DNA from: a virus
Direction: 5' to 3' (one strand)
Length of the DNA: 64,000 nucleotides
Virus record (IMG/VR): IMGVR_UViG_3300051212_000550
Below, one piece after another: positions 20,342-63,121 of the stretch. The notes beneath the pieces were generated by a model, which was given only the letters and a program-made list of their open reading frames with translations, did no database searches and was not told where the DNA came from. A program made the position numbers and the translations under genes. How positions within the stretch are numbered: position 1 is the stretch's first letter; the number at the start of each line of letters is the position of its first letter.

Positions 20342-21037
20342 TTAGTTTATTTCTGGGAATAAACAATGCTCAATAAACACTTTTACATCATCCTCATTTA
20401 AACCTAAGCTGGTCATAACACGTGGTGTATGTGGATTTTGTTTTTGATTCTGAGCATAGAAATTCTGCTCAACCGTGGCGTCTGCTACCTTGTTGTTAGT
20501 TTCGCCCACAGTTTCTAAATAATGATTAACAAGGATACGTGCTAGGCTTTCAATCTGATTAAGTTCGTCATCCTCTTGAACATTACCGGCTGCGACCATA
20601 TGCGGACTAAAGATACGTTGTGCCCACTCGGGTAATTCTCGTTTGCGTATCCATTCGTATCTAGATACTTCCTCGGCGAAATATTTTATCATAGGATGTT
20701 CACGATCTGTAGTGGGACTATAGTCTATGAAACATCCGGTAATTTTGTTTTTACCTGCTATGACATCAAAACCAAAAATAGGTGCCGGGTTATGGATATG
20801 TGGAAAGACACAGCAATGCATCATCCAGAGGCCCTTTGTGGATCGGGCATCGACTACATCGATATGGGCTCTGCGATAATTACCGCTGGTCCAAACACGA
20901 TTAACCCAACCCGGCTGATTGAATCTTTCCATTCCAGGTTCAAAAGTTTCTATTCCAGTATTGGAAAAACTTTTTTCAAGTAGTTCTTGAATACCAATGA
21001 GTTTATACCAAACTTTACTGTTCAATGTTTTGTCCAT
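20342..21037 (-). CDS. ferredoxin-dependent bilin reductase (PcyA/PebS/PcyX family)
   Basis: FDBR-family similarity by recognition; two residues downstream of heme oxygenase in the same operon. Confidence 0.7.
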   Translation of the reverse strand: MDKTLNSKVWYKLIGIQELLEKSFSNTGIETFEPGMERFNQPGWVNRVWTSGNYRRAHIDVVDARSTKGLWMMHCCVFPHIHNPAPIFGFDVIAGKNKITGCFIDYSPTTDREHPMIKYFAEEVSRYEWIRKRELPEWAQRIFSPHMVAAGNVQEDDELNQIESLARILVNHYLETVGETNNKVADATVEQNFYAQNQKQNPHTPRVMTSLGLNEDDVKVFIEHCLFPEIN

Positions 21038-21509
21038 TTTCGTCTACCTCTACCCAGGTATAATCACCCAACCACTTTACTCTAGTTATGTAATTATAAT
21101 CGTCCGGTGATCCTGTGCTCCAGTCATCGGGTCCGTGCTGAGTCAACAGTGTATGATTTTTTCTTGTGTTATAAACTAACCAATAACACTGACCGTGAGC
21201 TATTTGAAATTGATAAACTGCGGAGTGTACCATATCAGTTATATCAAGACGTCGTTTAATACTTGCTGCCTGCTTTTGTAAAACAGCAACCAGTTCCATG
21301 ATCCTGTTATATTCTTGTTGCCCGTGCATACGAGCAACATTGACCATAATGTCCTTTTGTTTTTCTACAGGAATTAAATCAAAAACAGGGCCTCCTACTT
21401 CTGTGGGATACGGAGTTACATTGCGATTGATAAACTGGACTAAAGAATCACCTATCTGAGAATCGAAGCTATCTTTTCCTTTTGAAAGATTACTCTTCTG
21501 ATCCTTCAT
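21015..21509 (-). CDS. hypothetical protein between HO and bilin reductase
   Basis: ORF track. Confidence 0.5.
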   Translation of the reverse strand: MKDQKSNLSKGKDSFDSQIGDSLVQFINRNVTPYPTEVGGPVFDLIPVEKQKDIMVNVARMHGQQEYNRIMELVAVLQKQAASIKRRLDITDMVHSAVYQFQIAHGQCYWLVYNTRKNHTLLTQHGPDDWSTGSPDDYNYITRVKWLGDYTWVEVDENGQNIEQ

Positions 21510-22044
21510 ATAATTCTTTCATCATTTTAATCGCCCACTCAAATGCTACTCTAGCCTCATCTCCTAAGTCGTCAGTTAGCTCAGAACGAATAGAAACTTT
21601 AAGGTCTTCCGGATTCTTAAAATCGTAGAAGCGACCTTTCGAAATATGTGCTACCTGCTTCTTGATGATCTGTCCACCATGTAAGTCTCCCATATGACGA
21701 CAATAAAGATGTGCTTTGATCTTAGGACGTTGTGTAGGATCGCGGACTAAACCTAACAGATAATTGTAGTATTCTATCGTTTCTGGTAACCACTTGTAAT
21801 TATGATCCACTCCTGCTATCTCAATAAAGTCTTGATAGATAGCGTGTGTTCTTTCTAAGCCGGGAAGATTTTTAAAATTGCCTTCTACTCGATTACCTAA
21901 TTCAATTGCATTATATACCAATACTAATTGATAAAGATAATTTGCATAGTCTTCTTTAGTAATCTTACCGCTAAGAAGCAATTTGGCGAATTGTGTTTTT
22001 TCTGCCTCGTGATGTAGGTCTTTGGTAATTTCTTTTAAACTCAT
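21490..22044 (-). CDS. heme oxygenase (HO-1 family)
   Basis: proximal His region HHEAEKTQF and YCRHMGDLHGGQ (canonical Y-x-R-Y-x-GDLSGGQ). Confidence 0.8.
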   Translation of the reverse strand: MSLKEITKDLHHEAEKTQFAKLLLSGKITKEDYANYLYQLVLVYNAIELGNRVEGNFKNLPGLERTHAIYQDFIEIAGVDHNYKWLPETIEYYNYLLGLVRDPTQRPKIKAHLYCRHMGDLHGGQIIKKQVAHISKGRFYDFKNPEDLKVSIRSELTDDLGDEARVAFEWAIKMMKELYEGSEE

Positions 22045-22672: not shown

Positions 22673-23107
22673 TTACTTAATATCTACAATGTCAATGACT
22701 TTTGGTTTTGCAGATTCTGGAATGTTTCGAACTAACTTAATAGTTAACATACCATTCTTTGTTTCTGCACCGAGAACCTCGATATGTTCTGCCAAAGGAA
22801 ACTCCTTGACGAAGTCGCGTGTAGCGAGACCTCTGTGCAGATACTGTTCTGGAGCATAATCTGTAGTCATGCTTTCACCTTTGATAACAAGAACGTTATT
22901 TTCTACGGTTACAGAAATTTCTGCTTTATCAAAACCAGTTACGGCCAATTGAATAGCATACTCGTTGTCACCTAAACGTAAAATGTTATGTGGGGGATAA
23001 TTGTTGTTAAGGCTGTTAGCAAAACGTCTTTCCATCTGGTCAAACATTGTGTCAAAGCCAATAAGTGCTCTATTGAGAGCGTCGATTCTAGCTATTTGAT
23101 TGTTCAT
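22673..23107 (-). CDS. small heat-shock protein (Hsp20/alpha-crystallin, IbpA-like)
   Basis: alpha-crystallin domain similarity. Confidence 0.85.
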   Translation of the reverse strand: MNNQIARIDALNRALIGFDTMFDQMERRFANSLNNNYPPHNILRLGDNEYAIQLAVTGFDKAEISVTVENNVLVIKGESMTTDYAPEQYLHRGLATRDFVKEFPLAEHIEVLGAETKNGMLTIKLVRNIPESAKPKVIDIVDIK

Positions 23108-23122
23108 AATAATCTCCTTTTA

Positions 23123-23169
23123 AAGTAAGAATTTGAGCATTTTGCTCTATGTTGGGGCCCATTAGGTAC
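23123..23169 (-). promoter_or_regulatory. conserved upstream element (GTACCTAATGGGC ~22 nt AAATTCTTACTT) before hsp20; copy 1
   Basis: the same two motifs at similar spacing occur upstream of dnaK; the first lies in the loop of a 9-bp hairpin. Confidence 0.45.
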
Positions 23170-23200
23170 CCCAACATATTATACACACATTGGTGTATTC

Positions 23201-25111
23201 TTAGGATGTCTTTCCCTCGGTTTCAGTAAAGGAAGCATCAATCACTTCACCATCTGCTGGCTGCTTTTCGCTTTCTGATTTAGCAGCTTCACGTTTGGCT
23301 TTAATCTTTTCAAATAGAGGCTTAGCAGCATCTGCTACATTAAAAGGACCTTTCTTGATTTCTTCGAGGTCTTTGCTGTCGTTGGCTAACTTTTCGGCTT
23401 CAGTTAATGCATCTTCAATAGCCTTCCATTCTTCTTCTGTGGCGAGATCCTTTTCAGCTTCTAGTTCCTTGCGGATAGTGTAAAGTTCTGAAAGAGCACT
23501 ATTACGTCCTTCAATAACTTCACGTGCCTTTTTATCTTCTTCAGCAAATTGTTCTGCTTCAGAAATCATACGTTTGATTTCATCTTCGCTGATACCACTA
23601 TTTGCCTTAATGGTAATCTTGTTTTCTTTGCCTGTGTTCTTGTCCTTGGCACTTACACTTAAGATGCCGTTGGCGTCGATGTCAAAGGTGACTTCAATCT
23701 GTGGCATTCCACGAGGTGCCGGATCAATACCTTCTAGATTAAATTCACCTAACAATTTATTGTGATGTGCAAGTTCACGTTCTCCTTGGAACACACGGAT
23801 AGTAACAGCTGGTTGATTATCTTCGGCTGTACTGAAGATTTGTGTTGCCTTTGTAGGAATAGTAGTGTTCTTGTTAACCAACTTAGCCATAATGCCGCCC
23901 ATTGTTTCAATACCTAATGTCAATGGTGTAACATCTAGCAACAGAACGTCTTTGCGATCGCCAGCAAGAACTGCTCCTTGAATAGCTGCTCCAACAGCAA
24001 CAGCCTCGTCTGGGTTAACATCACGGCGTGGTGCTTTACCAAATAGTTTTTCAACTTCTTCTTGTACCTTAGGCATACGTGTCTGTCCGCCGACGAGAAT
24101 AACTTCGTCAATATCGGCAGCAGTAACACCTGCATCCTTCATAGCAATGCGGCATGGCTCTAATGAACGCTTAACCAGATCATCAACTAATGCTTCTAAT
24201 TTTGCTTTAGTTAGTTTAACAACCAAATGCTTAGGACCACTTGCATCAGCAGTGATGTAAGGAAGGTTGACTTCTGTTTGAGTAGAACTCGATAATTCAA
24301 TCTTAGCTTTTTCAGCAGAATCTTTTAAACGCTGTAAGGCCAACATGTCTTTGGTTAGATCGATTCCCTGTTCTTTCTTAAATTCTTCAACAAGGTAATC
24401 CATGATACGCTGGTCGAAGTCTTCACCGCCTAGGAATGTATCACCGTTAGTAGAAAGAACTTCAATTTGCTTGTCGCCATCTACATTAGCGATTTCAATA
24501 ATGCTTACATCAAATGTACCACCACCTAAGTCGTACACAGCAATCTTACGATCTGCTTTTTCTTGCTTGTCCACTCCATAAGCTAGTGCTGCGGCAGTAG
24601 GTTCGTTGATAATACGTAGAACTTCTAATCCAGCAATCTGTCCTGCATCTTTAGTAGCCTGGCGTTGGCTATCATTAAAATAAGCAGGAACTGTAATAAC
24701 TGCTTGAGTAACTTCATGGCCTAAATAATCTTCGGCAGTCTTCTTCATCTTGCGAAGAACTTCTGCAGAGACCTGCGGAGGAGCCATTTCTTTACCTTGG
24801 GCACGAATCCATGCATCACCATTCTTTGCCTTGGTAATTTCATAAGGCATCAGGTCGATGTCTTTTTGTACAGCTTCTTCGTTGAACTTACGTCCAATCA
24901 ACCGCTTGGCTGCATAAATTGTATTTTTTGGATTTGTTACTGCCTGACGCTTTGCACTTGCACCAACCAAGATATCGCTGTCTGTATAAGCAACAATACT
25001 TGGGGTTGTACGTGCGCCTTCTGAATTTTCGATTACTTTCGAAACGCCGTTTTCAATAACGGCTACACATGAGTTTGTGGTACCCAAATCGATACCGATG
25101 ATTTTTGACAT
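23201..25111 (-). CDS. dnaK: molecular chaperone DnaK (Hsp70)
   Basis: full-length Hsp70 ([16 protein letters not shown] etc.). Confidence 0.95.
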
Positions 25112-25192: not shown

Positions 25193-26212
25193 TTATCTCA
25201 CGAATACATCATTAAATTGCTTATTGACTCGAATAAATGTTGTACATTTTGATAGTTGTTTAAGACTTGGCGCTCCAACGTATGTGCAAGAGCTGCGTAA
25301 TCCACCCAAAATATCCAAAATTGTATCCTTAATAGGACCGCGATATGGAACTTGAACTGTTCTTCCTTCGCTACTACGATATTCTGCTACACCACCATGA
25401 TGTTTATTCATAGCAGTATCTGAACTCATTCCGTAGAATGTAATTTTTCCATCTTTAATTTCTCCGCCCCCTTCATCGTGTCCTGCTAGCATACCGCCTA
25501 GCATTACAAAGTCAGCTCCCGCGCCAAACGCTTTGGCAACATCACCAGGACAAGTACATCCACCGTCAGCAATAATATGACCGCCAAGACCGTGAGCGGC
25601 GTCGGCACATTCAATAATAGCACTAAGCTGTGGGTACCCAACACCAGTTTGAATACGAGTAGTACAAACACTACCAGGACCAATCCCAACTTTAACAATA
25701 TCCGCACCACGTAAAATTAACTCCTGTGTCATGTCCGCAGTAACAACATTGCCTGCGATGATTGTTTTATCTGGATAGGTCGTTCTAACTTTAGAAACAA
25801 ATTCTCCAAAATGTTCACTGTATCCGTTGGCTACATCGATACAAATAAAATGTATTCTCGGATAAGAATTGATTGTTTGCCTTAGTTTTAAAAAATCTTT
25901 ATCACTAGTGCCAGTGCTGACAGCAAAATAATCACTGCCAATATCTTCTATAGTCGTCTGTAGATATAATGTATCAATGTTCTTAACTAAACAGGTAAAC
26001 ATTCGGTGCTGATACAATTCAATGGCCATATGTAATGTACCAACACCGTCCATGTTCGATGCCATGATCGGAACACCCGACCATTCGAATTTACTGTGTT
26101 TAAATTTATATGTCCGGGTTAGGTCTACTTCTTTACGACTTGATAATGTGCTACGCTTAGGACGGATTAAGACATCTTTAAAATCTAACTTAACTTCGTC
26201 TTCGATTCTCAT
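25193..26212 (-). CDS. guaC: GMP reductase
   Basis: N-terminus [23 protein letters not shown] close to E. coli GuaC; no CBS insert. Confidence 0.85.
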
Positions 26213-26790
26213 CGGGAATCCTTTAGGGGAGAAAGTAATTGACCATCAAAGGTCGATGAAGTCCGTAGTCTACGGAAAACATTTTGTACTCCAATAGCTT
26301 GATTATATGCATCATGAAGTGCATGGTGCGCTAAGACCTCTGGACGATCTGGATTGATGCCAAGATCAAAAATTGTTCTGGTATCGCGCACCTGCCAGAA
26401 ACTCCACGGATAGCCTTTGCCGATCTTACGGAATACTGTTTCTAGAATAACAACATCAAAGCCAGCACCATGACTCCATACACGTTTACATCCCCAACAG
26501 AATTTATACAGTTGATTCATCGCATCAACGATGTCTACTCTGTTCTCTGTTCCGAATGCTTCGTCTTGTGCTTCTTTGCTTTGTTTTGCCCACCATTCGA
26601 GTGTATCTTGCGAAGTGACCAATCCCAGTCTATCACAACTGTCAATGTCTATTCGCAGATAAAAACTTTCCATTGCAGGTTCTTTGAGATCCTGACCAAA
26701 CGGATCAAATTTTACTGCACCAATACTTAGGATAGCTGCATCCGGGGTAGTGGCAAGTGTTTCAAGGTCAATCATAATATCTGAATTCAT
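26209..26790 (-). CDS. DEDD-family 3'-5' exonuclease (DnaQ-like)
   Basis: Exo I IDLET, HxAxxD motif HHALHDAYN. Confidence 0.7.
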
Positions 26791-27714: not shown

Positions 27715-28971
27715 CTATTCCGGACGAGTCTTCTTGATCTGTTCCTTGCCTTCCTTCTCGAACCAGGTCAACTCTTTTTTTTTAGAATCTTCTTCGGTTT
27801 GCTCTTCTGCCCATTCTTTGGCCTTGTCAGCTTCTTCAGTCTGGGGGTTTTCTTCCGCCCATTTCTTAGCTTCTTCGGCTGCTAGGGCTTCTGCACGTAA
27901 ACGCTCTGCTTCTTTTTCTGCTTCTTTCTCTGCTTCTTCGATCATTTTGTTCCACTGATCAATAGGCATCGGTGTTTCTTCTAATTGTTCAACACGTTGA
28001 GCTATTCTTCCCTCGGCTTCTTTGAGGAAATCTTTTTCTTCCAAAGGATTCACTGGTTCAGTTTTTTCAACTGTGGCTGCAGGAAAGGGCCATTTATTAT
28101 TTGGCGATTCTGTAAGATCCTGTGTTTCTACAGTTTCCTCTTTAATAACTGGTCCACGGACTCCATTAGAAAAGTCGTACTCTTCTCTCATTTGATCCGG
28201 ATCATTGCGATAACGGCGATGCCATTCAAAAGTCATCTGTGCAGCCAGCAACATGATAACTGCCAGTGGATCAAATACTATAACGATAAGAATGATGACC
28301 CATGTAACTGCTTTTTCTAGCATGTTCTCATCGGCACCTTTATCACCATAGATAAATTTAGCGATATATTTCAGTGGTCCAACCTCTGCTTCTACCTTGC
28401 GAACCTCGGCCGCGATTGGCGCACGTTCTGCTTGTAGTTGAGAAATGTTCTTTTGTGCTTTGACGATTTCTGCTTGTAAGGCAGCACGTTCTTTGGCTTG
28501 ATTACGACGGATCTGAACTGCACGTTCTGCACCACGATCAGTATCAGTACGACCTAGCATCTGATCGACCTGAGCATCCATTTGAGACAGTGCTTTCTTG
28601 GCCGTTTCTATATTATCTTTTTCAGTCTTGATCTTTTCATCATAGATCGCGATTTGAGATAACACATCTCCAGATACTAGATTCTGATCATTATGTGCTT
28701 TTGACAGGAACCCAAAGATTCCCATAGAAGTAATTAACATGAGCACAACTACTGATGTGCCCATGTAGTATTTCATGAATCGTGGAGCACGATTCCAATT
28801 TGCCTTTAACCAACTAGCACAGACTAATTTGGCAATCTCTAATGTCGTTCCCATAATGTAAATGGGAATCACTGCCGCAGAGAAAATAGCGGCTAAACCA
28901 ACTACTGAGTAGTAGATTGCAACCGCTGAAATTGTTAAACCAGTTAATAGTAGTAGATAGGCTAAGAGCAT
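27715..28971 (-). CDS. polytopic membrane protein with a long cytoplasmic coiled coil (AEKEAEKEAERLRAE); TAG stop
   Basis: ORF track; 4 TM helices at the N-terminus; the frame stays open for 42 codons beyond the TAG. Confidence 0.6.
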   Translation of the reverse strand: MLLAYLLLLTGLTISAVAIYYSVVGLAAIFSAAVIPIYIMGTTLEIAKLVCASWLKANWNRAPRFMKYYMGTSVVVLMLITSMGIFGFLSKAHNDQNLVSGDVLSQIAIYDEKIKTEKDNIETAKKALSQMDAQVDQMLGRTDTDRGAERAVQIRRNQAKERAALQAEIVKAQKNISQLQAERAPIAAEVRKVEAEVGPLKYIAKFIYGDKGADENMLEKAVTWVIILIVIVFDPLAVIMLLAAQMTFEWHRRYRNDPDQMREEYDFSNGVRGPVIKEETVETQDLTESPNNKWPFPAATVEKTEPVNPLEEKDFLKEAEGRIAQRVEQLEETPMPIDQWNKMIEEAEKEAEKEAERLRAEALAAEEAKKWAEENPQTEEADKAKEWAEEQTEEDSKKKELTWFEKEGKEQIKKTRPE

Positions 28972-35404: not shown

Positions 35405-35911
35405 TTAACTGTTCAATACCTTAGCAACACTATTCATTACTGCGGCAATGCGTCCAATGTCACGTAGTTGCTCAACAGTATAGCCTTCAGTCTTTAGTGT
35501 GTCATAGTGTGCCTTAACGCAGAAGTGACACTTGCCAACAATACTTGCGGCAAGACTAAACGCTTCAAAGTTTGCCTTGGTAGTTCCGCCATGACTTGCG
35601 ATTGCATTCATACGTAACTGTGCTGGCAATCCTTTAAGTTGTTCATCATCTGCCATTTCAACATATGGATACCATACATTGTTTTGTGCCATGATGCTTG
35701 CGGCAGTCATTGCGGCATCTGCATGAACAGGTGCATCAGCTAACATAACAGCAAGTACTTTACCGTTACCAGTTGCGGCGAGTGCGGCTACAGCACAACC
35801 CATAGCCACATCAGCATCTAATGTGCTACGCAAAAGGACAGCGTCCAAGTTTAACTTGGTGTCCTTTGCGTATTCTGGCAACGCATCTTTGATAGCGTCA
35901 CTGAATGCCAT
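35405..35911 (-). CDS. ahpD: AhpD-like alkylhydroperoxidase (carboxymuconolactone decarboxylase family)
   Basis: CxxC-H motif [10 protein letters not shown]. Confidence 0.7.
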
Positions 35912-36444
35912 TATAGTGTCTCCCCGCCTACTGCACGGTTACAAGCACAAAGTTCGCCAGTTTGTAGCGCATCAAGAACACGTAGAGTTTCTTCTGGGCT
36001 ACGACCAACGTTCAAGTTGTTGACAGTAACGTGTTGAATAACGTTCTCTGGGTCAACAATAAATGTTGCGCGAAGTGCTGCGCCTGCTGGAGAATAGAAT
36101 ACGCCTAACTGATTGATTAGGCTTAGGTCGCCACGTTGTGTGTCTGCGAATTGTGTATGTGTAATCTTTGCCAAGTCTGGGTGTGCCTTTTGCCATGCTA
36201 GTTTACAGAACTCGTTGTCTGTTGAACCTGTAAGCAATACAGCATCGCGGTCTTTGAAATCGCCTGTGAGCTTATCATAAGCAACAATTTCTGTTGGACA
36301 TACAAATGTAAAGTCCTTTGGATAGTAAACGATGACTTTCCACTTGCCTGCGAAAGATTCGTCAGTAATGTCAAAGAATTGATCACTACCTGGATTAACA
36401 CCTGTTACGGCAAACTTTTCAATTTTATCACCAACTGTTTTCAT
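35911..36444 (-). CDS. ahpC: peroxiredoxin (AhpC/TSA family)
   Basis: peroxidatic-Cys motif FTFVCPTE; start moved to MKTVGDK (SD AAGGAG, -10 TATAAT at 36501..36506). Confidence 0.8.
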   Translation of the reverse strand: MKTVGDKIEKFAVTGVNPGSDQFFDITDESFAGKWKVIVYYPKDFTFVCPTEIVAYDKLTGDFKDRDAVLLTGSTDNEFCKLAWQKAHPDLAKITHTQFADTQRGDLSLINQLGVFYSPAGAALRATFIVDPENVIQHVTVNNLNVGRSPEETLRVLDALQTGELCACNRAVGGETL

Positions 36445-36593
36445 ATCATTCTCCTTTGTGTGTGTTGAAAACTTAATAGGACTCTTCGTCCTGTACAAAT
36501 ATTATACATTTAATTATCCTATTAATCTAGAATTTTAATAGGTTTTTTTATTGTATTTTTTTATAAGCATCATTGAATAAACCAATAACGATT

Positions 36594-36625
36594 AAAAAAG
36601 CGACCCGAAGGTCGCTTTACTATTT
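36594..36625 (-). terminator. intrinsic terminator (AGCGACC-uucg-GGUCGCU + U6) ending the tmRNA precursor
   Basis: seen directly. Confidence 0.75.
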
Positions 36626-36995
36626 TGGGTGAGAAGGTATAGTTACCCCCGACTTGCAGTTTCTTAGGCTGCTAGTGCAACACGACCACCAACGGTGTTA
36701 CCGTTGAAGCTCATTGCTGCGAAGTCAAATGCATCATCGTTTGCATTTATAGTTTTGCTTGATTTACGGTCATCGCCTACCGTGTTGCCGTCTCTACTAT
36801 CTACCCCTGTCGAAACCATAACTGGCCCATTAGGGAGAACACTACTTGCTATGCCGGCCACTATCACTTACCGCGGAGTTGTGCGCCTTCCAGCTCCTTC
36901 TGCAATGTTCTCTCTGGTGGACCAGGCGGGAGTCGAACCCGCGTCCAGAAGTCCTTCGCTTTGAAGGGATTACAACAATTCTTTATTCGTAAGGT
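36626..36995 (-). ncRNA. ssrA: circularly permuted (two-piece) tmRNA gene, ssrA
   Basis: upstream piece ends GGACGCGGGUUCGACUCCCGCCUGGUCCACCA (E. coli tmRNA 3' end differs at only 5 positions); 86 nt downstream the 5' acceptor strand GGGCCAG (G3.U70 Ala identity, A73) is followed by UUAUGGUUUCGACAGGGG (tmRNA D-analog UUCGAC); resume codon GCA at 36744 opens the tag frame ANDDAFDFAAMSFNGNTVGGRVALAA-UAA (to 36664); a terminator follows. The 5' boundary is approximate. Confidence 0.75.
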
Positions 36996-37193
36996 TTTAA
37001 AAAGTCGTCGTCTTTTGAATCTTCTTCAAACTTAGTCCAATCATAGGTTACCAAGGCATGAATCCATGCACCGATACAATAGACAAGTAAAAGTAATATT
37101 AAAAAGCCACCCATGTTAATGTAACAACAATAATGATCACAACAATTAAAAATCCAACTAGAAATCTGGTTAAGTCGTCATTTATAAAAGTAT

Positions 37194-37451
37194 TTAACTT
37201 TCTTTCTTCATCATTGTCAAGACCTTAGTGTTCAAAATCATATTTTCTGTTACTAATTTTGTAATCGTTGCAAGGAGTATTAACTTATCCTCATCTGTAA
37301 CAATATCTTTATCAAATTGTTCCAGAATACTAGTACCAATCATCTTCATAGCTTCTTCTTTGCCATTTGTAAAGACACCCCAATCAATCGGATCGCCCTC
37401 TTCTGCGGCAAATGCGATATCAGTTAATTCTTCTAAAGTTATTTTAGCCAT
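37194..37451 (-). CDS. hypothetical protein
   Basis: ORF track. Confidence 0.5.
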   Translation of the reverse strand: MAKITLEELTDIAFAAEEGDPIDWGVFTNGKEEAMKMIGTSILEQFDKDIVTDEDKLILLATITKLVTENMILNTKVLTMMKKES

Positions 37452-56242: not shown

Positions 56243-56689
56243 TTAGTTGCACCAACTTTGTTTTGCATCGCCATAATATTCACGAGCAAAACCATTTGCA
56301 ATTAGGGCAGCACGTAGGCTCTGTCCATTAACTAAAATATCACCCAATACACGACCACCAAACTTGTCCCATCCGTAGAGTGTAGCTTGAAATTTACCAC
56401 CATTGGCTGCGGCAGTAGCGATGGCATTCTTGGTGAAAGCTGTGGCTGCTTCTCCTCGTTGTGCTTCGCTAGGGCATTGTGCTCTGTGTCCTTTTTCTGG
56501 AGTGTCGACTCCGTAGACTCTAACAGCAAGCTCTGGCTTAAGAGGCGCTGGCAGAAAGGGTGCTGCGATCACCACCGTATCGCCGTCGCTAACTCTTAAA
56601 ATTTGTGCATCGTATGTAACTCCTTTTGGAGCCTTTTGAGCAAATGCCAGTACAGGCACAGCTAATAATAATAGTAGTAGTTTTTTCAT
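56243..56689 (-). CDS. secreted staphylococcal-nuclease-like (SNase/thermonuclease) protein
   Basis: signal peptide; motifs VSDGDTVVI and VRVYGVDTPEK. Confidence 0.7.
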   Translation of the reverse strand: MKKLLLLLLAVPVLAFAQKAPKGVTYDAQILRVSDGDTVVIAAPFLPAPLKPELAVRVYGVDTPEKGHRAQCPSEAQRGEAATAFTKNAIATAAANGGKFQATLYGWDKFGGRVLGDILVNGQSLRAALIANGFAREYYGDAKQSWCN

Positions 56690-60443: not shown

Positions 60444-61634
60444 ATGATCAACAAAGAACCATTCAAACATCTAATCAAAGACCTCAAAGATACAGGAAAA
60501 TACCGTGTGTTTAACGATATTGTGCGTGAGCGAGGGCAATTTCCTAAAGCTATTTGGTACGGACCTTATAATATTAAAACTATAGTTAATTGGTGTTCAA
60601 ACGATTATTTGGGAATGGGACAAAATAAAGTAGTCCTTGATGCTATGCACACAGCATTAGATCAAACTGGTGCGGGATCAGGCGGCACCCGTAACATTGG
60701 TGGTACCAGTCATTATCACGTAGCATTAGAACACGAGCTTGCTATGCTGCATAACAAGAGCAAAGCACTGTTGTTCAGCAGCGCCTATGTTGCTAACGAA
60801 TGGACTATTATCGCTCTAAGTAAAATCATAGACAATATACAGTTTATTTCGGACAGTAAAAATCATAACAGTCTGATTGTTGGTATACAACATTCGAAGG
60901 CACCAAAGCAGATATTCGAACACAATAATTTAAATGATCTAGAAGATAAACTAGCACAGAGCAAACTTGCAGGATTTACTCCTTGCATAGTTTTTGAATC
61001 AGTTTACAGTATGGATGGTGATGTTAGCCCAATTAAAGATATCTGTGATCTCGCAGATCGTTATCAGGCAATAACATACATTGACGAAGTACATGCGGTA
61101 GGGCTCTACGGGACGCACGGTGGCGGAAAAGTAGAAGAATTTGGTTTAGAATCCCGAGTTGATATAATCAACGGTACGTTAGGGAAAGCCTTTGGAGTCC
61201 AAGGTGGCTATGTTGCTGCCGATGCTGATGTTGTTGATGCCATCCGTTCTGTAGCTGCTGGCTTTATCTTTACAACATCAATGAGTCCTGTGGCCTGTGC
61301 TGGAGCACTGGCTGCGGTTAAATGGCTTAAAGATCACAACGAAGTTCGGGTCAAGCATCAAGAACGTGCTGCTAAACTAAAGCAACTATTAAAAGAAAAT
61401 GAGCTGCCTGTTATGGACAGCTCAACTCATATAGTTCCAGTTCTAGTAGGGGATGCTAAGAGATGTAAATCAATGAGTGACAAACTGTTAGAGGATCACA
61501 ACATCTATGTACAACCAATTAACTATCCTACTGTTGACGTAGGTACTGAGCGGTTGCGCTTTGCTCCTACTCCATACCATGATGACTCTATGATGAGCAA
61601 TTTAATATCTGCTCTCAAGGACGTTTTTCAATGA
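60444..61634 (+). CDS. hemA: 5-aminolevulinate synthase (glycine + succinyl-CoA, C4 pathway)
   Basis: [47 protein letters not shown] and PLP-Lys [12 protein letters not shown] match ALAS rather than BioF/Kbl. Confidence 0.75.
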
Positions 61635-62205
61635 TCTTGTCAACAAGTCCGTAGTCTAGAGCTTCTTGTGCGCTCATAAACTTATCACGTTCCATATCAC
61701 GAGCAAACTCATCATAGGTCTTGCCTTTGCTGTTATGCTTGACATAGATCTCAGTAAGATACTTTTTCATCTTTAGTATCTCTTCTGCTTGGATCTGGAT
61801 GTCTGTGGCCTGTCCACGAGCACCGCCACTGGGTTGATGGATCATATGGCGAGCATTAGGCAACATGAAACGTTTGCCTGCTGCTCCTGACTGTGCTAAT
61901 AGACTGCCCATGCTACAGGCCTGACCCATTACATAGGTGGCGATATCACACTTAACGAACTGCATAACATCATAGATAGCCATACCTGCTGTCACTACTC
62001 CGCCGGGGCTGTTGATAAACAGATTGATATCCTTCTTGGGATCTTCGGACTCTAGGAACAATATCTGAGCCACAATTAAATTACTCATCATGTCTTCCAC
62101 AGGACCATTTAACATGACAATACGTTCTTTGAGTAGACGACTGTAAATGTCATAGGCACGTTCGCCCTTGCTTGTGGATTCAACTACTACTGGTACTAGA
62201 CTCAT
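61615..62205 (-). CDS. clpP: ATP-dependent Clp protease proteolytic subunit
   Basis: Ser GQACSMGS, His HQPSGG; start moved to MSLVPVV, which aligns with the mature ClpP N-terminus. Confidence 0.9.
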
Positions 62206-63121
62206 TCTTCTTCCTTTTCTTGAATTGTTCAACTTGATTACCGATCCAATTGATTACGTTTACTTTAGGTTCGTAACCCAATTGTTTTAATTTGGTTATG
62301 TCCGCAAAGGTTAAACGCACCTGTCCAATCCTATCCGGAACCTTAACCTGCTTATTACTGACAACGTCAGCAATTTCTTTAACACTGGTCGATGTTCCTG
62401 AACCAATGTTATAGATCTCATCACGCATACCCTTTTCTATTATAAGCTCTAATGCTTGAACAGCATCAGATGCATGTACAAAGTCTCTGCGTTGATCTCC
62501 ATCACCATGTATAAACAAAGGTTGATCATCAACCAATGCTTTCATGTAACGAGGAATCATTAATGCCCTGTCACCATAGTCCATATATGCCCCATACATG
62601 GTAAATGGTCTAACAATTATCAGTTCCGTTATCCAAGCCTTTTGGCTCTGCACACGCAACGCCCATTCAGCTGCTAGTTTACTAACTGCATATGGACTGC
62701 TGGGATTCAGTGCGCCATCTTCAGTTTGGGCTTCTTGTCCATTGTTGCCATACACAGAGCTAGAACTGATGTAGATAAACTTTTTGATATTGTATTCTTG
62801 ACATAGCTGAAAGAACTTGTGTGTATCTGCTATGTTAGTTTTATAATAACTTTGATATTCTAACCAACTGGGATCTATCCTAGCACGATTGGCACAATGT
62901 ATCACAACATCAACTTTATCCAATAGGGCTGCATAGACAAATAGATCATTGTAGAGATCTGCTTTGGCTATTTCGATATTTGGGTCTAGGGGTTCTAGTT
63001 GAAAGTTAGTCCATTCTCCTGGATCTTGATCAACTAACACAAGATCATACTTGTCTTTTAGATAGTGAGTTATGTTCCTACCCAAAAAGCCAGCTGCTCC
63101 TGTAACTAAAATGCGTTTCAT
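62180..63121 (-). CDS. NAD-dependent epimerase/dehydratase (SDR family)
   Basis: GAAGFLG Rossmann motif; catalytic YAVSK. Confidence 0.8.

Follow-up and report, generated by a model that had tools for sequence, protein, structure and literature searches.

The 64,000-nucleotide (nt) stretch of viral DNA in the IMG/VR record IMGVR_UViG_3300051212_000550, referred to here as the window, contains a locus on its minus strand (36594..36977) that the evidence supports as a complete circularly permuted two-piece transfer-messenger RNA (tmRNA; ssrA) gene within phage DNA. The best explanation for this locus is a functional phage-encoded circularly permuted tmRNA, to which we assign a probability of roughly 85%. 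Phage-borne permuted tmRNA as such is already a known kind, published for example for the phage Melnitz in 2022 (PMC9004378). What looks new is that the gene belongs to a conserved family with tags of 26-33 amino acids (aa), under peptide-level selection and at a fixed syntenic position, that its lineage is distributed mainly in viral DNA, and that ClpP, DnaK, Hsp20 and an amber-suppressor tRNA occur in the same window, together with near-avoidance of TAG stop codons. The long-tag sub-family and the mainly viral distribution make the gene worth focused follow-up.

The identity of the gene is supported by both ARAGORN and covariance model (CM) searches. At 36573-37007 (-), ARAGORN reports a permuted tmRNA (tmRNA*) whose tag is ANDDAFDFAAMSFNGNTVGGRVALAA, the same tag that a preliminary description of this DNA had read from the sequence by itself. 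In Rfam, the gene scores far above threshold with beta_tmRNA (RF01850; 145.9 bits, E 1e-44, full model, 36676-37028, gathering score 84) and with tmRNA_permuted (RF04321; 145.3 bits, E 1e-28, model positions 1-213 of 213, 36664-36977, gathering score 47). The beta_tmRNA model is the best-scoring clan member at the locus, with lower-scoring overlapping tRNA and tmRNA clan members suppressed, and alpha_tmRNA (RF01849) did not win this competition. The resume codon and the ALAA-stop (GCA CUA GCA GCC UAA) align with the consensus of both CMs. The 3' tRNA-like end is present in a single copy in the 64-kb window, with 0 matches in shuffled sequence, and over its last 44 nt the acceptor piece shares 84% identity with the ssrA of all 5,426 E. 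coli genomes. The fold of the whole gene has a z-score of -3.2, and the G+C content of the locus is 48-51%, compared with ~39% for the window.

The gene reads as a single precursor, with the outer P2 strand at one end and the U-run of a terminator at the other, and its parts lie in permuted order on one strand: the encoded CCA ends at 36915 and G1 lies at 36828. The acceptor piece (~63 nt, 36915..36977), delimited by sequence reading, CM alignments and covariation, comprises the outer P2 strand UGUUGU (36977-36972), the inner P2 strand ACUUCUG (36952-36946), a T stem-loop GCGGG-UUCGACU-CCCGC with a 7-nt loop (36942-36926), the 3' acceptor strand CUGGUCC (36925-36919), and the discriminator A with the encoded CCA (ACCA, 36918-36915). 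Its T-arm/acceptor/ACCA block, as read from the sequence, is the 32-nt GGACGCGGGTTCGACTCCCGCCTGGTCCACCA (36946-36915). The coding piece (~235 nt, 36594..36828) runs from the 5' acceptor strand GGGCCAG (36828-36822) through the terminator. The 5' acceptor strand is followed by the D-loop analogue TTATGGTTTCGA (36821-36810, read from the sequence and also written UUAUGGUUUCGA), the inner P2 strand CAGGGGU (36809-36803), the outer P2 strand GCAACA (36788-36783), and a hairpin (36782-36767) that leads into an A-rich stretch ending in UAAAU. The resume codon GCA (36744-36742) then opens the tag reading frame ANDDAFDFAAMSFNGNTVGGRVALAA (36664..36744), which closes with a UAA stop (TAA in the DNA, 36666-36664). 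Identity elements of a tRNA-Ala-like acceptor are present, with the pairs G1-C72, G2-C71 and G3.U70, the discriminator A73, and CCA. The T-arm/acceptor/CCA block, the 5' acceptor strand with its alanine-identity pairs and A73, the D-loop analogue, the resume codon and tag frame, the 86-nt gap between the pieces, the absence of a second T-arm and the GC-rich character of the locus had been put forward in the preliminary description, and each was found where it had been placed; its wording that the 3' end is almost identical to that of E. coli was right about the similarity and somewhat generous about the degree.

Downstream of the tag lies a pseudoknot-like element (36620..36650) with the stem GGGGGU/ACCUUC and a loop, CUAU, that is complementary to a downstream AUAG. 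The pseudoknot pairing is a by-eye reading, and the post-tag hairpin also appears in the minimum free energy (MFE) fold; the sequence of the block is conserved, with a switch in the stem from UA...UA to CA...UG among relatives. The gene ends at the intrinsic terminator GCGACC-UUCG-GGUCGC followed by six U residues (36594..36615), which the preliminary description had also noted and which we assign from sequence reading and the fold. A terminator scan listed the hairpin on the plus strand only, with the T-run absorbed by stem extension, and the by-eye reading was used here. Relatives likewise have a hairpin and then a T-run at this position.

Helix strands were taken by anchors from 143 genes, giving 73 distinct helix sets. 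Across these sets the acceptor stem has canonical pairs in 98.8% of cells, with G3.U70 invariant (73/73) and pair 6 found as AU in 55 sets, UA in 15, and GC in 1. The T stem is 100% canonical, with CG, UA, AU, and GC all seen at pair 2. The inner P2 helix (ACUUCUG/CAGGGGU) forms with 97.5% canonical pairs and shows three to five pair types at pairs 1-5, including four to five at pairs 1, 2 and 4, while the outer P2 helix (UGUUGU/GCAACA) forms with 94.3% canonical pairs and shows UA/AU/GC, GC/AU, UA/CG, and UA/GC/CG at successive pairs. Because both helices form and undergo compensatory changes in 73 distinct relatives, we consider the P2 pairing between the pieces to be real. The 86-nt spacer that intervenes between the pieces (36914-36829) is predicted to be excised, on the basis of its MFE fold and its variability in relatives. 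In the window it forms a long hairpin (GAGAACA.../...UGUUCUC), which places G1 beside the 3'-terminal CCA. Its length varies between 25 and 405 nt in relatives, with no sequence conservation in alignments, as expected for a spacer that is discarded.

The lineage to which the gene belongs was traced by two sequence scans. At least 119 IMG/VR contigs contain an exact copy of the 32-nt T-arm/acceptor/CCA block, and ARAGORN finds permuted tmRNAs in 111 of them, mostly with 10-14-aa tags of the ANDExFALAA type and a few with long tags. A scan with the first seven codons of the long tag matched at least 119 stretches and gave 99 further permuted tmRNAs, nearly all with tags of 26-33 aa, bringing the lineage to more than 230 IMG/VR contigs. 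Rfam classifies 13 of 13 sampled relatives as permuted tmRNA, with 12 scoring best as beta and one (L151) best as alpha, at 76 bits. A published survey found tmRNA in 402 of 18,146 phage genomes, with 133 unique sequences, 53 of them two-piece and 50 of these 53 from marine or aquatic phages (PMC9004378), and RF04321 is a merged model from the 2025 update of the tmRNA database, which holds 79 phage sequences from RefSeq viruses only (PMC11915505). The preliminary description had called a phage with its own permuted tmRNA rare, which the 53 published two-piece sequences and the size of the present lineage show to have been overstated.

The tag itself is what distinguishes this gene. The window tag is 26 aa long, starts with AND, and ends with ALAA, and its length, flagged as unusual in the preliminary description, places it in a selected family of 26-33-aa tags with a common motif in 94 related contigs (56 distinct coding sequences and 38 distinct peptides). 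The family consensus is ANADTF(D/E)F(S/G/T/A)A(M/L)(S/N)FTGN(T/S)V, followed by a variable stretch and (K/R)(V/F)ALAA, and the tags nearest to that of the window are ANDDSFDFAALSFTGNTVGGRVALAA (six loci) and ANADTFDFAALSFSGNTVGGRVALAA. We calculated pooled Nei-Gojobori ratios of nonsynonymous to synonymous change (pN/pS) over tag codons 8-18, which are unconstrained by either scan pattern, from 37 distinct 33-nt segments of the 56 coding sequences. The ratio is 0.24 in the tag frame, compared with 1.64 and 3.40 in the other frames. Variation across these codons is mainly synonymous, with Phe encoded by TTC or TTT, Thr by ACT, ACA or ACC, Gly by GGT, GGC or GGA, Asn by AAC or AAT, and Val by GTT or GTA; in the tags, Ser codons alternate between AGC and TCT, and Leu is encoded by TTG, TTA, CTA, and CTG. 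Wobble changes in GGN AAC ACN disrupt a small hairpin seen in the window, which speaks for constraint at the level of the peptide rather than the RNA. These sequence comparisons indicate that the long tag is a translated peptide under purifying selection.

This selection bears on whether the RNA could instead be a decoy or inhibitor that titrates host SmpB, alanyl-tRNA synthetase (AlaRS) or ribosomes and so shuts down trans-translation, with the tag being irrelevant. Such a role has been proposed for the RNA of mycobacteriophage DS6A, which consists only of a tRNA-like domain, and a similar molecule inhibits E. coli tmRNA (PMC4131195, PMC11915505). The GGGCCAG acceptor stem also differs from the Rfam beta_tmRNA consensus, and no smpB was seen in the window. 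However, a decoy needs no reading frame, yet the tag frame is under clear peptide-level purifying selection. The resume-codon context, terminal ALAA, and stop codon are all conserved as well, and the full mRNA-like domain and the pseudoknot-like element downstream have been kept. A decoy function is, in our judgement, very unlikely.

The long tag appears to be a modification of an ordinary one. A close relative (L010), with 93% identity in AhpC, has the short tag ANDTRFALAA at the same genomic position, and such short-tag relatives indicate that the extension is a derived and retained feature. Some members of the long-tag family have a complete host-like ANDSRFALAA after the insertion, and in others, including the window, ALAA alone is left. 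The long tag could be read as a tandem tag duplication, but the tag ANANTFDYALAA of the Xanthomonas phage XacN1 and a 13-aa relative, ANADTFETFALAA, make an internal insertion at least as likely an origin. The tag would have gained the conserved internal extension ANADTFDFxAMSFTGNTV within the phage clade and kept it through selection on the peptide. The motif turned up neither in the literature that could be searched nor in the supplements to the tmRNA database and Melnitz papers, which is a weak negative, and a blastn search of INPHARED with the locus gave no long-tag member.

An extension of this kind raises the question of what happens to the tagged proteins. The gene could encode a working tmRNA in which the insertion TFDFxAMSFTGNTV sends tagged proteins elsewhere rather than simply serving as a ClpXP degron, with a Lon- or FtsH-type protease, a phage-specific adaptor, a complex with the phage ClpP, or a mark that tells phage products from host products as candidate fates. 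The insertion is conserved and selected as a peptide, it contains many aromatic and hydrophobic residues, close relatives at the same position keep the ordinary 10-aa tag and so identify the extension as derived, the host-like ANDSRFALAA follows the insertion in some members with ALAA alone in others, and the phage encodes its own ClpP. Mycoplasma and Mesoplasma, which have one-piece bacterial tmRNAs, provide a parallel in their long (27-aa), Lon-specific ssrA tags, in which internal residues are also informative, and Gur and Sauer reportedly found in 2008 that Lon, and not ClpXP, recognises the 27-aa tag of Mesoplasma florum. The phage tag is similar in length to the Mycoplasma and Mesoplasma tags but unrelated in sequence, and it keeps the ClpX-type ALAA end. 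Against a change of fate, no adaptor candidate was identified, the extension could be a tolerated spacer with conservation from recent common ancestry, and the pN/pS values come from a 33-nt segment of related sequences. We treat rerouting of tagged proteins as a tentative possibility.

The position of the gene among its neighbours is also conserved. At the 94 long-tag loci, a DUF454 homologue is found 85 times, an upstream 96-aa open reading frame (ORF) 76 times, nrdB 66 times, and ahpC 63 times, with aa identities of 55-90%. The fixed order nrdAB ... DUF454 - small ORF - tmRNA - ahpC - ahpD characterises a clade of large uncultured phages, and the shared neighbours place the tmRNA at a fixed position in a coherent phage clade. 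In the window, the tmRNA terminator is directly followed by genes for an AhpC-type peroxiredoxin and an AhpD-like protein of the CMD family, at 35405-36498 (-).

The surrounding DNA is that of a phage. Nearly all window ORFs are on the minus strand, and they include genes for a tail-spike-like protein, virion structural proteins and a lysozyme/baseplate-hub-like protein, as well as the class Ia ribonucleotide reductase (RNR) subunits NrdA and NrdB, an AAA ATPase, nucleases, and many auxiliary metabolic genes (AMGs), among them a fatty-acid desaturase and sugar-modifying enzymes. The flanks are syntenic with many IMG/VR viral contigs, and megablast with 24 kb around the locus found no DNA-level similarity to the cultured phages in INPHARED. 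The window is thus part of a large, uncultured, lytic-looking phage and is neither host chromosome nor a prophage junction, in line with the phage-like setting given in the preliminary description. The gene might otherwise have been the resident ssrA of a host used as a bacterial attachment site (attB), or a fragment carried off by imprecise prophage excision. Genomic islands commonly integrate at tmRNA genes (PMC11915505, PMC4383910), and some IMG/VR contigs have their 32-mer match at a contig end. The gene is nevertheless complete, with both pieces, tag, and terminator; its single 3' end in 64 kb means that there is no att repeat, no att-type duplicate of that end having been found in the window, and no integrase was found among the ~80 window ORFs scanned. 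Structural and replication genes of phage type flank it on both sides in one orientation, and dozens of viral contigs show the same order of genes. The exact 3' end is also essentially absent from the genomes of 185,579 bacterial and archaeal species. An origin as a host attachment site is hardly credible on this evidence.

The scan of bacterial and archaeal genomes, with one genome for each of the 185,579 species, returned the exact 32-mer in only two short contigs of metagenome-assembled genomes (MAGs). One of these, the 7.6-kb CAZCDW010000126.1 (L120) from a MAG labelled uncultured Bifidobacterium sp., contains a tRNA-CTA, a permuted tmRNA (ARAGORN tag VAVNDSKFALAA; beta_tmRNA, 132.5 bits), and an ahpC fragment, and it looks like a related-phage contig mis-binned into a bacterial MAG. 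So far this tmRNA lineage is known almost exclusively from viral DNA, and the gene was not captured recently from the host.

Two cultured phages carry members of the same lineage. Comparison of the locus with cultured phages by blastn gave only matches of 72-75 nt, which were later identified as permuted tmRNAs in the Xanthomonas jumbo phage XacN1 (AP018399; L239 1481-1901; tag ANANTFDYALAA; beta_tmRNA, 107.8 bits) and the Pseudomonas phage SM1 (KU245542; L238 1476-1896; tag ANDTSFDVRLAA; beta_tmRNA, 111.2 bits), both scoring 119-123 bits with RF04321. No feature is annotated at these positions in the stretches of the two records that we examined. Weak blastn matches in PA_L9, UF_RH6, PaMx31, FBPa45, and JGB6 probably hold the same gene, either labelled as 'hypothetical protein' or unannotated. 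The XacN1 and SM1 genes have an alignable architecture that includes the P2 region GUAAUCCCUU(C/U)AAA, and the XacN1 tag resembles both ends of the long tag (ANADTFDF...ALAA). They differ from the window gene in their 12-aa tags, which have no AMSFTGNTV insertion, and in their acceptor stems, GGGCGUG and GGGGCUG.

These relatives bear on the host. Xanthomonas and Pseudomonas, which are gammaproteobacterial, carry one-piece tmRNA, so the permuted form is a property of the phage lineage and no indicator of the host. The preliminary description had inferred an alphaproteobacterial-type host from the permuted order, and this was not supported: beta_tmRNA is the best model for the window gene and for 12 of the 13 sampled relatives, and the lineage occurs in phages of Xanthomonas and Pseudomonas. 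A mismatch between tmRNA type and host has also been published for Melnitz, an OM43 phage with an alpha-type ssrA (PMC9004378). The nearest relatives of the window's proteins point in different directions, with NrdA closest to phages of Xanthomonas, Ralstonia, and Stenotrophomonas, AhpC to a Ralstonia-labelled record, one virion protein to cyanophages and HMO-2011, and one ATPase to a Microbacterium phage, and inference of the host from them was dropped for this reason.

Comparison with known systems places the gene close to the betaproteobacterial two-piece tmRNA (Sharkady and Williams 2004, as cited in PMC9004378). It shares with RF01850 the permuted order, the tRNA-like domain, the P2 helices, the post-P2 hairpin, the resume context UAAAU|GCA, and a tag that starts with AND and ends with ALAA. 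It differs in being phage-encoded, in an acceptor stem (GGGCCAG/CUGGUCC) that departs from the model consensus, in a spacer of 86 nt where the model consensus has ~10, and in its 26-aa tag, whereas the short ANDExFALAA tags of the lineage (10 aa) fit the coding consensus of the model. The Methylophilales phage Melnitz and the pelagimyophages likewise combine a complete permuted ssrA with a large lytic aquatic-type phage, RNR, and AMGs, and Melnitz resembles the window in its lack of an integrase and in showing that tmRNA type need not match the host (PMC9004378). However, the Melnitz ssrA is reported to be of alpha type with a glutamine riboswitch in its 3' domain (PMC9004378), whereas the window gene is best described as beta. 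A search for the glutamine riboswitch with Rfam gave no family at an E-value of 1 or below in 36300-37300 and none at the gathering score across the window. The neighbourhoods also differ, with ahpC/ahpD and DUF454 at the window locus and a gp33-like coactivator and thyX in Melnitz.

Bacterial two-piece tmRNA biology (Keiler, Shapiro and Williams 2000, as cited in PMC9004378) serves as the model for how the phage RNA could work. In this process, one ~385-nt precursor would be transcribed and end at the intrinsic terminator, and its 86-nt spacer would be excised by tRNA-processing enzymes, with RNase P cutting 5' of G1 and 3' trimming halting at the encoded CCA. The products would be a 63-nt acceptor piece and a ~235-nt coding piece, joined by the 7-bp acceptor stem and by two P2 helices of 7 and 6 bp. 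Host AlaRS could charge this RNA via the G3.U70 pair and host SmpB would bring it to stalled ribosomes, where translation would restart at GCA and add the 26-residue tag. Its ALAA ending is expected to act as a ClpX/ClpA-type degron, so that tagged chains would then be proteolysed. The most likely role, by this inference, is the upkeep of a pool of free ribosomes and the removal of aberrant proteins in the course of infection. A role in ribosome maintenance or tagging during infection has been proposed for phage tmRNA of the Melnitz type (PMC9004378).

Several other genes in the window could act in the same process. A ClpP orthologue (61615-62232 (-); PF00574, 2.1e-81, full length; best PDB ClpP match 2.4e-80) has intact Ser (GQACSMG), His (MIHQP), and Asp (ERDKF) motifs, and it is a possible proteolytic partner for ALAA-tagged proteins. 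A full-length DnaK/Hsp70 of 636 aa, with 64-69% identity over nearly its full length to its best tblastn matches, several of which are annotated as DnaK, is directly followed downstream by an Hsp20/alpha-crystallin gene (the pair at 22673-25111 (-)). A tRNA with the anticodon CTA (8387-8462 (-); Rfam tRNA, 62.4 bits), labelled 'Pyl' by ARAGORN, is an amber suppressor. Stop codons in 87 minus-strand ORFs are TAA in 59, TGA in 26, and TAG in 2, and of the two TAG-ended ORFs just one looks like a real gene (27715-28971). Wholesale recoding of TAG was considered and rejected, with TAG read as sense lengthening ORFs no more than the TGA-sense or TAA-sense controls. A tRNA-CTA is found near the tmRNA in 13 related loci, and XacN1 has two copies ~1 kb from its tmRNA that share their anticodon arm and T arm with the tRNA-CTA of the window.

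These genes suggest a way in which the phage could raise the demand for ribosome rescue itself, with the amber-suppressor tRNA causing read-through of host TAG stops, while it also supplies ClpP, DnaK, and Hsp20. Suppressor tRNAs are said to raise SsrA tagging in E. coli, according to work by Ueda and colleagues in 2002. Functional coupling of the tmRNA to ClpP, DnaK, Hsp20, and the suppressor tRNA is speculative. A broader proposal joins these elements: in a tmRNA lineage so far known almost exclusively from viral DNA, in phages whose hosts may use the one-piece form, the 16-20-residue tag insertion would reroute phage-tagged proteins through a switch of protease or adaptor, possibly involving the phage ClpP, and the suppressor would push host ribosomes past TAG, with the tmRNA clearing the products and the phage avoiding TAG in its own genes. 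We regard the joint claim as doubtful.

A number of observations weigh against our interpretation of the locus or limit its reach. There is no convincing sigma-70 promoter directly upstream of the tmRNA, and the number of sigma-70-like sites is no different from that in shuffled sequence. smpB was not found in the 64-kb window by phmmer with one E. coli SmpB sequence, in what is probably part of a much larger genome. The functional steps described above are all drawn from homology, and the link to other genes is one of co-occurrence only, with the suppressor tRNA 28 kb and ClpP 25 kb from the tmRNA. That the lineage is mainly viral was judged from a bacterial-genome scan with one exact 32-mer, whereas ~30% of the family has the variant acceptor stem CAGGTCC. 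Finally, contig counts overstate the number of independent lineages, because IMG/VR contigs may come from the same few phage populations; distinct sequences were counted on account of such possible repeat sampling.

Phage tmRNAs have been catalogued, and the long-tag locus offers a concrete way into their role. Closely related phages provide a natural comparison, because at the same position some have the standard 10-aa tag and others the conserved 26-33-aa tag. The lineage also gives reason for caution, as the host cannot be told reliably from whether a phage tmRNA is permuted or one-piece, or from whether its subtype is alpha or beta. The combination of tmRNA, ClpP, DnaK, Hsp20, and an amber-suppressor tRNA with few TAG stops suggests a joint re-engineering of host translation termination and protein quality control by large phages.

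Other features of the window were noted in the course of the analysis. A hydrophobic 43-codon ORF (MGGFLILLLLVYCIGAWIHALV...) at 36983-37111 (-) ends 6 nt upstream of the first tmRNA helix, and gene calling on the identical Logan contig L237 also reports it. This ORF and the tmRNA may share a transcript, and a promoter for the tmRNA by itself was not identified. Two genes for turnover of RNA or DNA, one for an Rv2179c-like 3'-5' exoribonuclease (26209-26790 (-), 9.3e-41) and the other staphylococcal-nuclease-like (56243-56689 (-)), could bear on RNA processing in infection. The region 20342-22044 (-) is a phage bilin-biosynthesis cluster of the PebS/PcyX kind, in which a DUF2452 gene separates a heme oxygenase gene (21490-22044 (-); PF01126, 1.5e-22) from one that resembles ferredoxin-dependent bilin reductases (20342-21037 (-); PF05996, 6.8e-16). 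Near the start of the window, four 132-aa ORFs with no Pfam match (419-817, 1072-1470, 2661-3059, and 3256-3654, all (-)) may form a tandem paralogue family.

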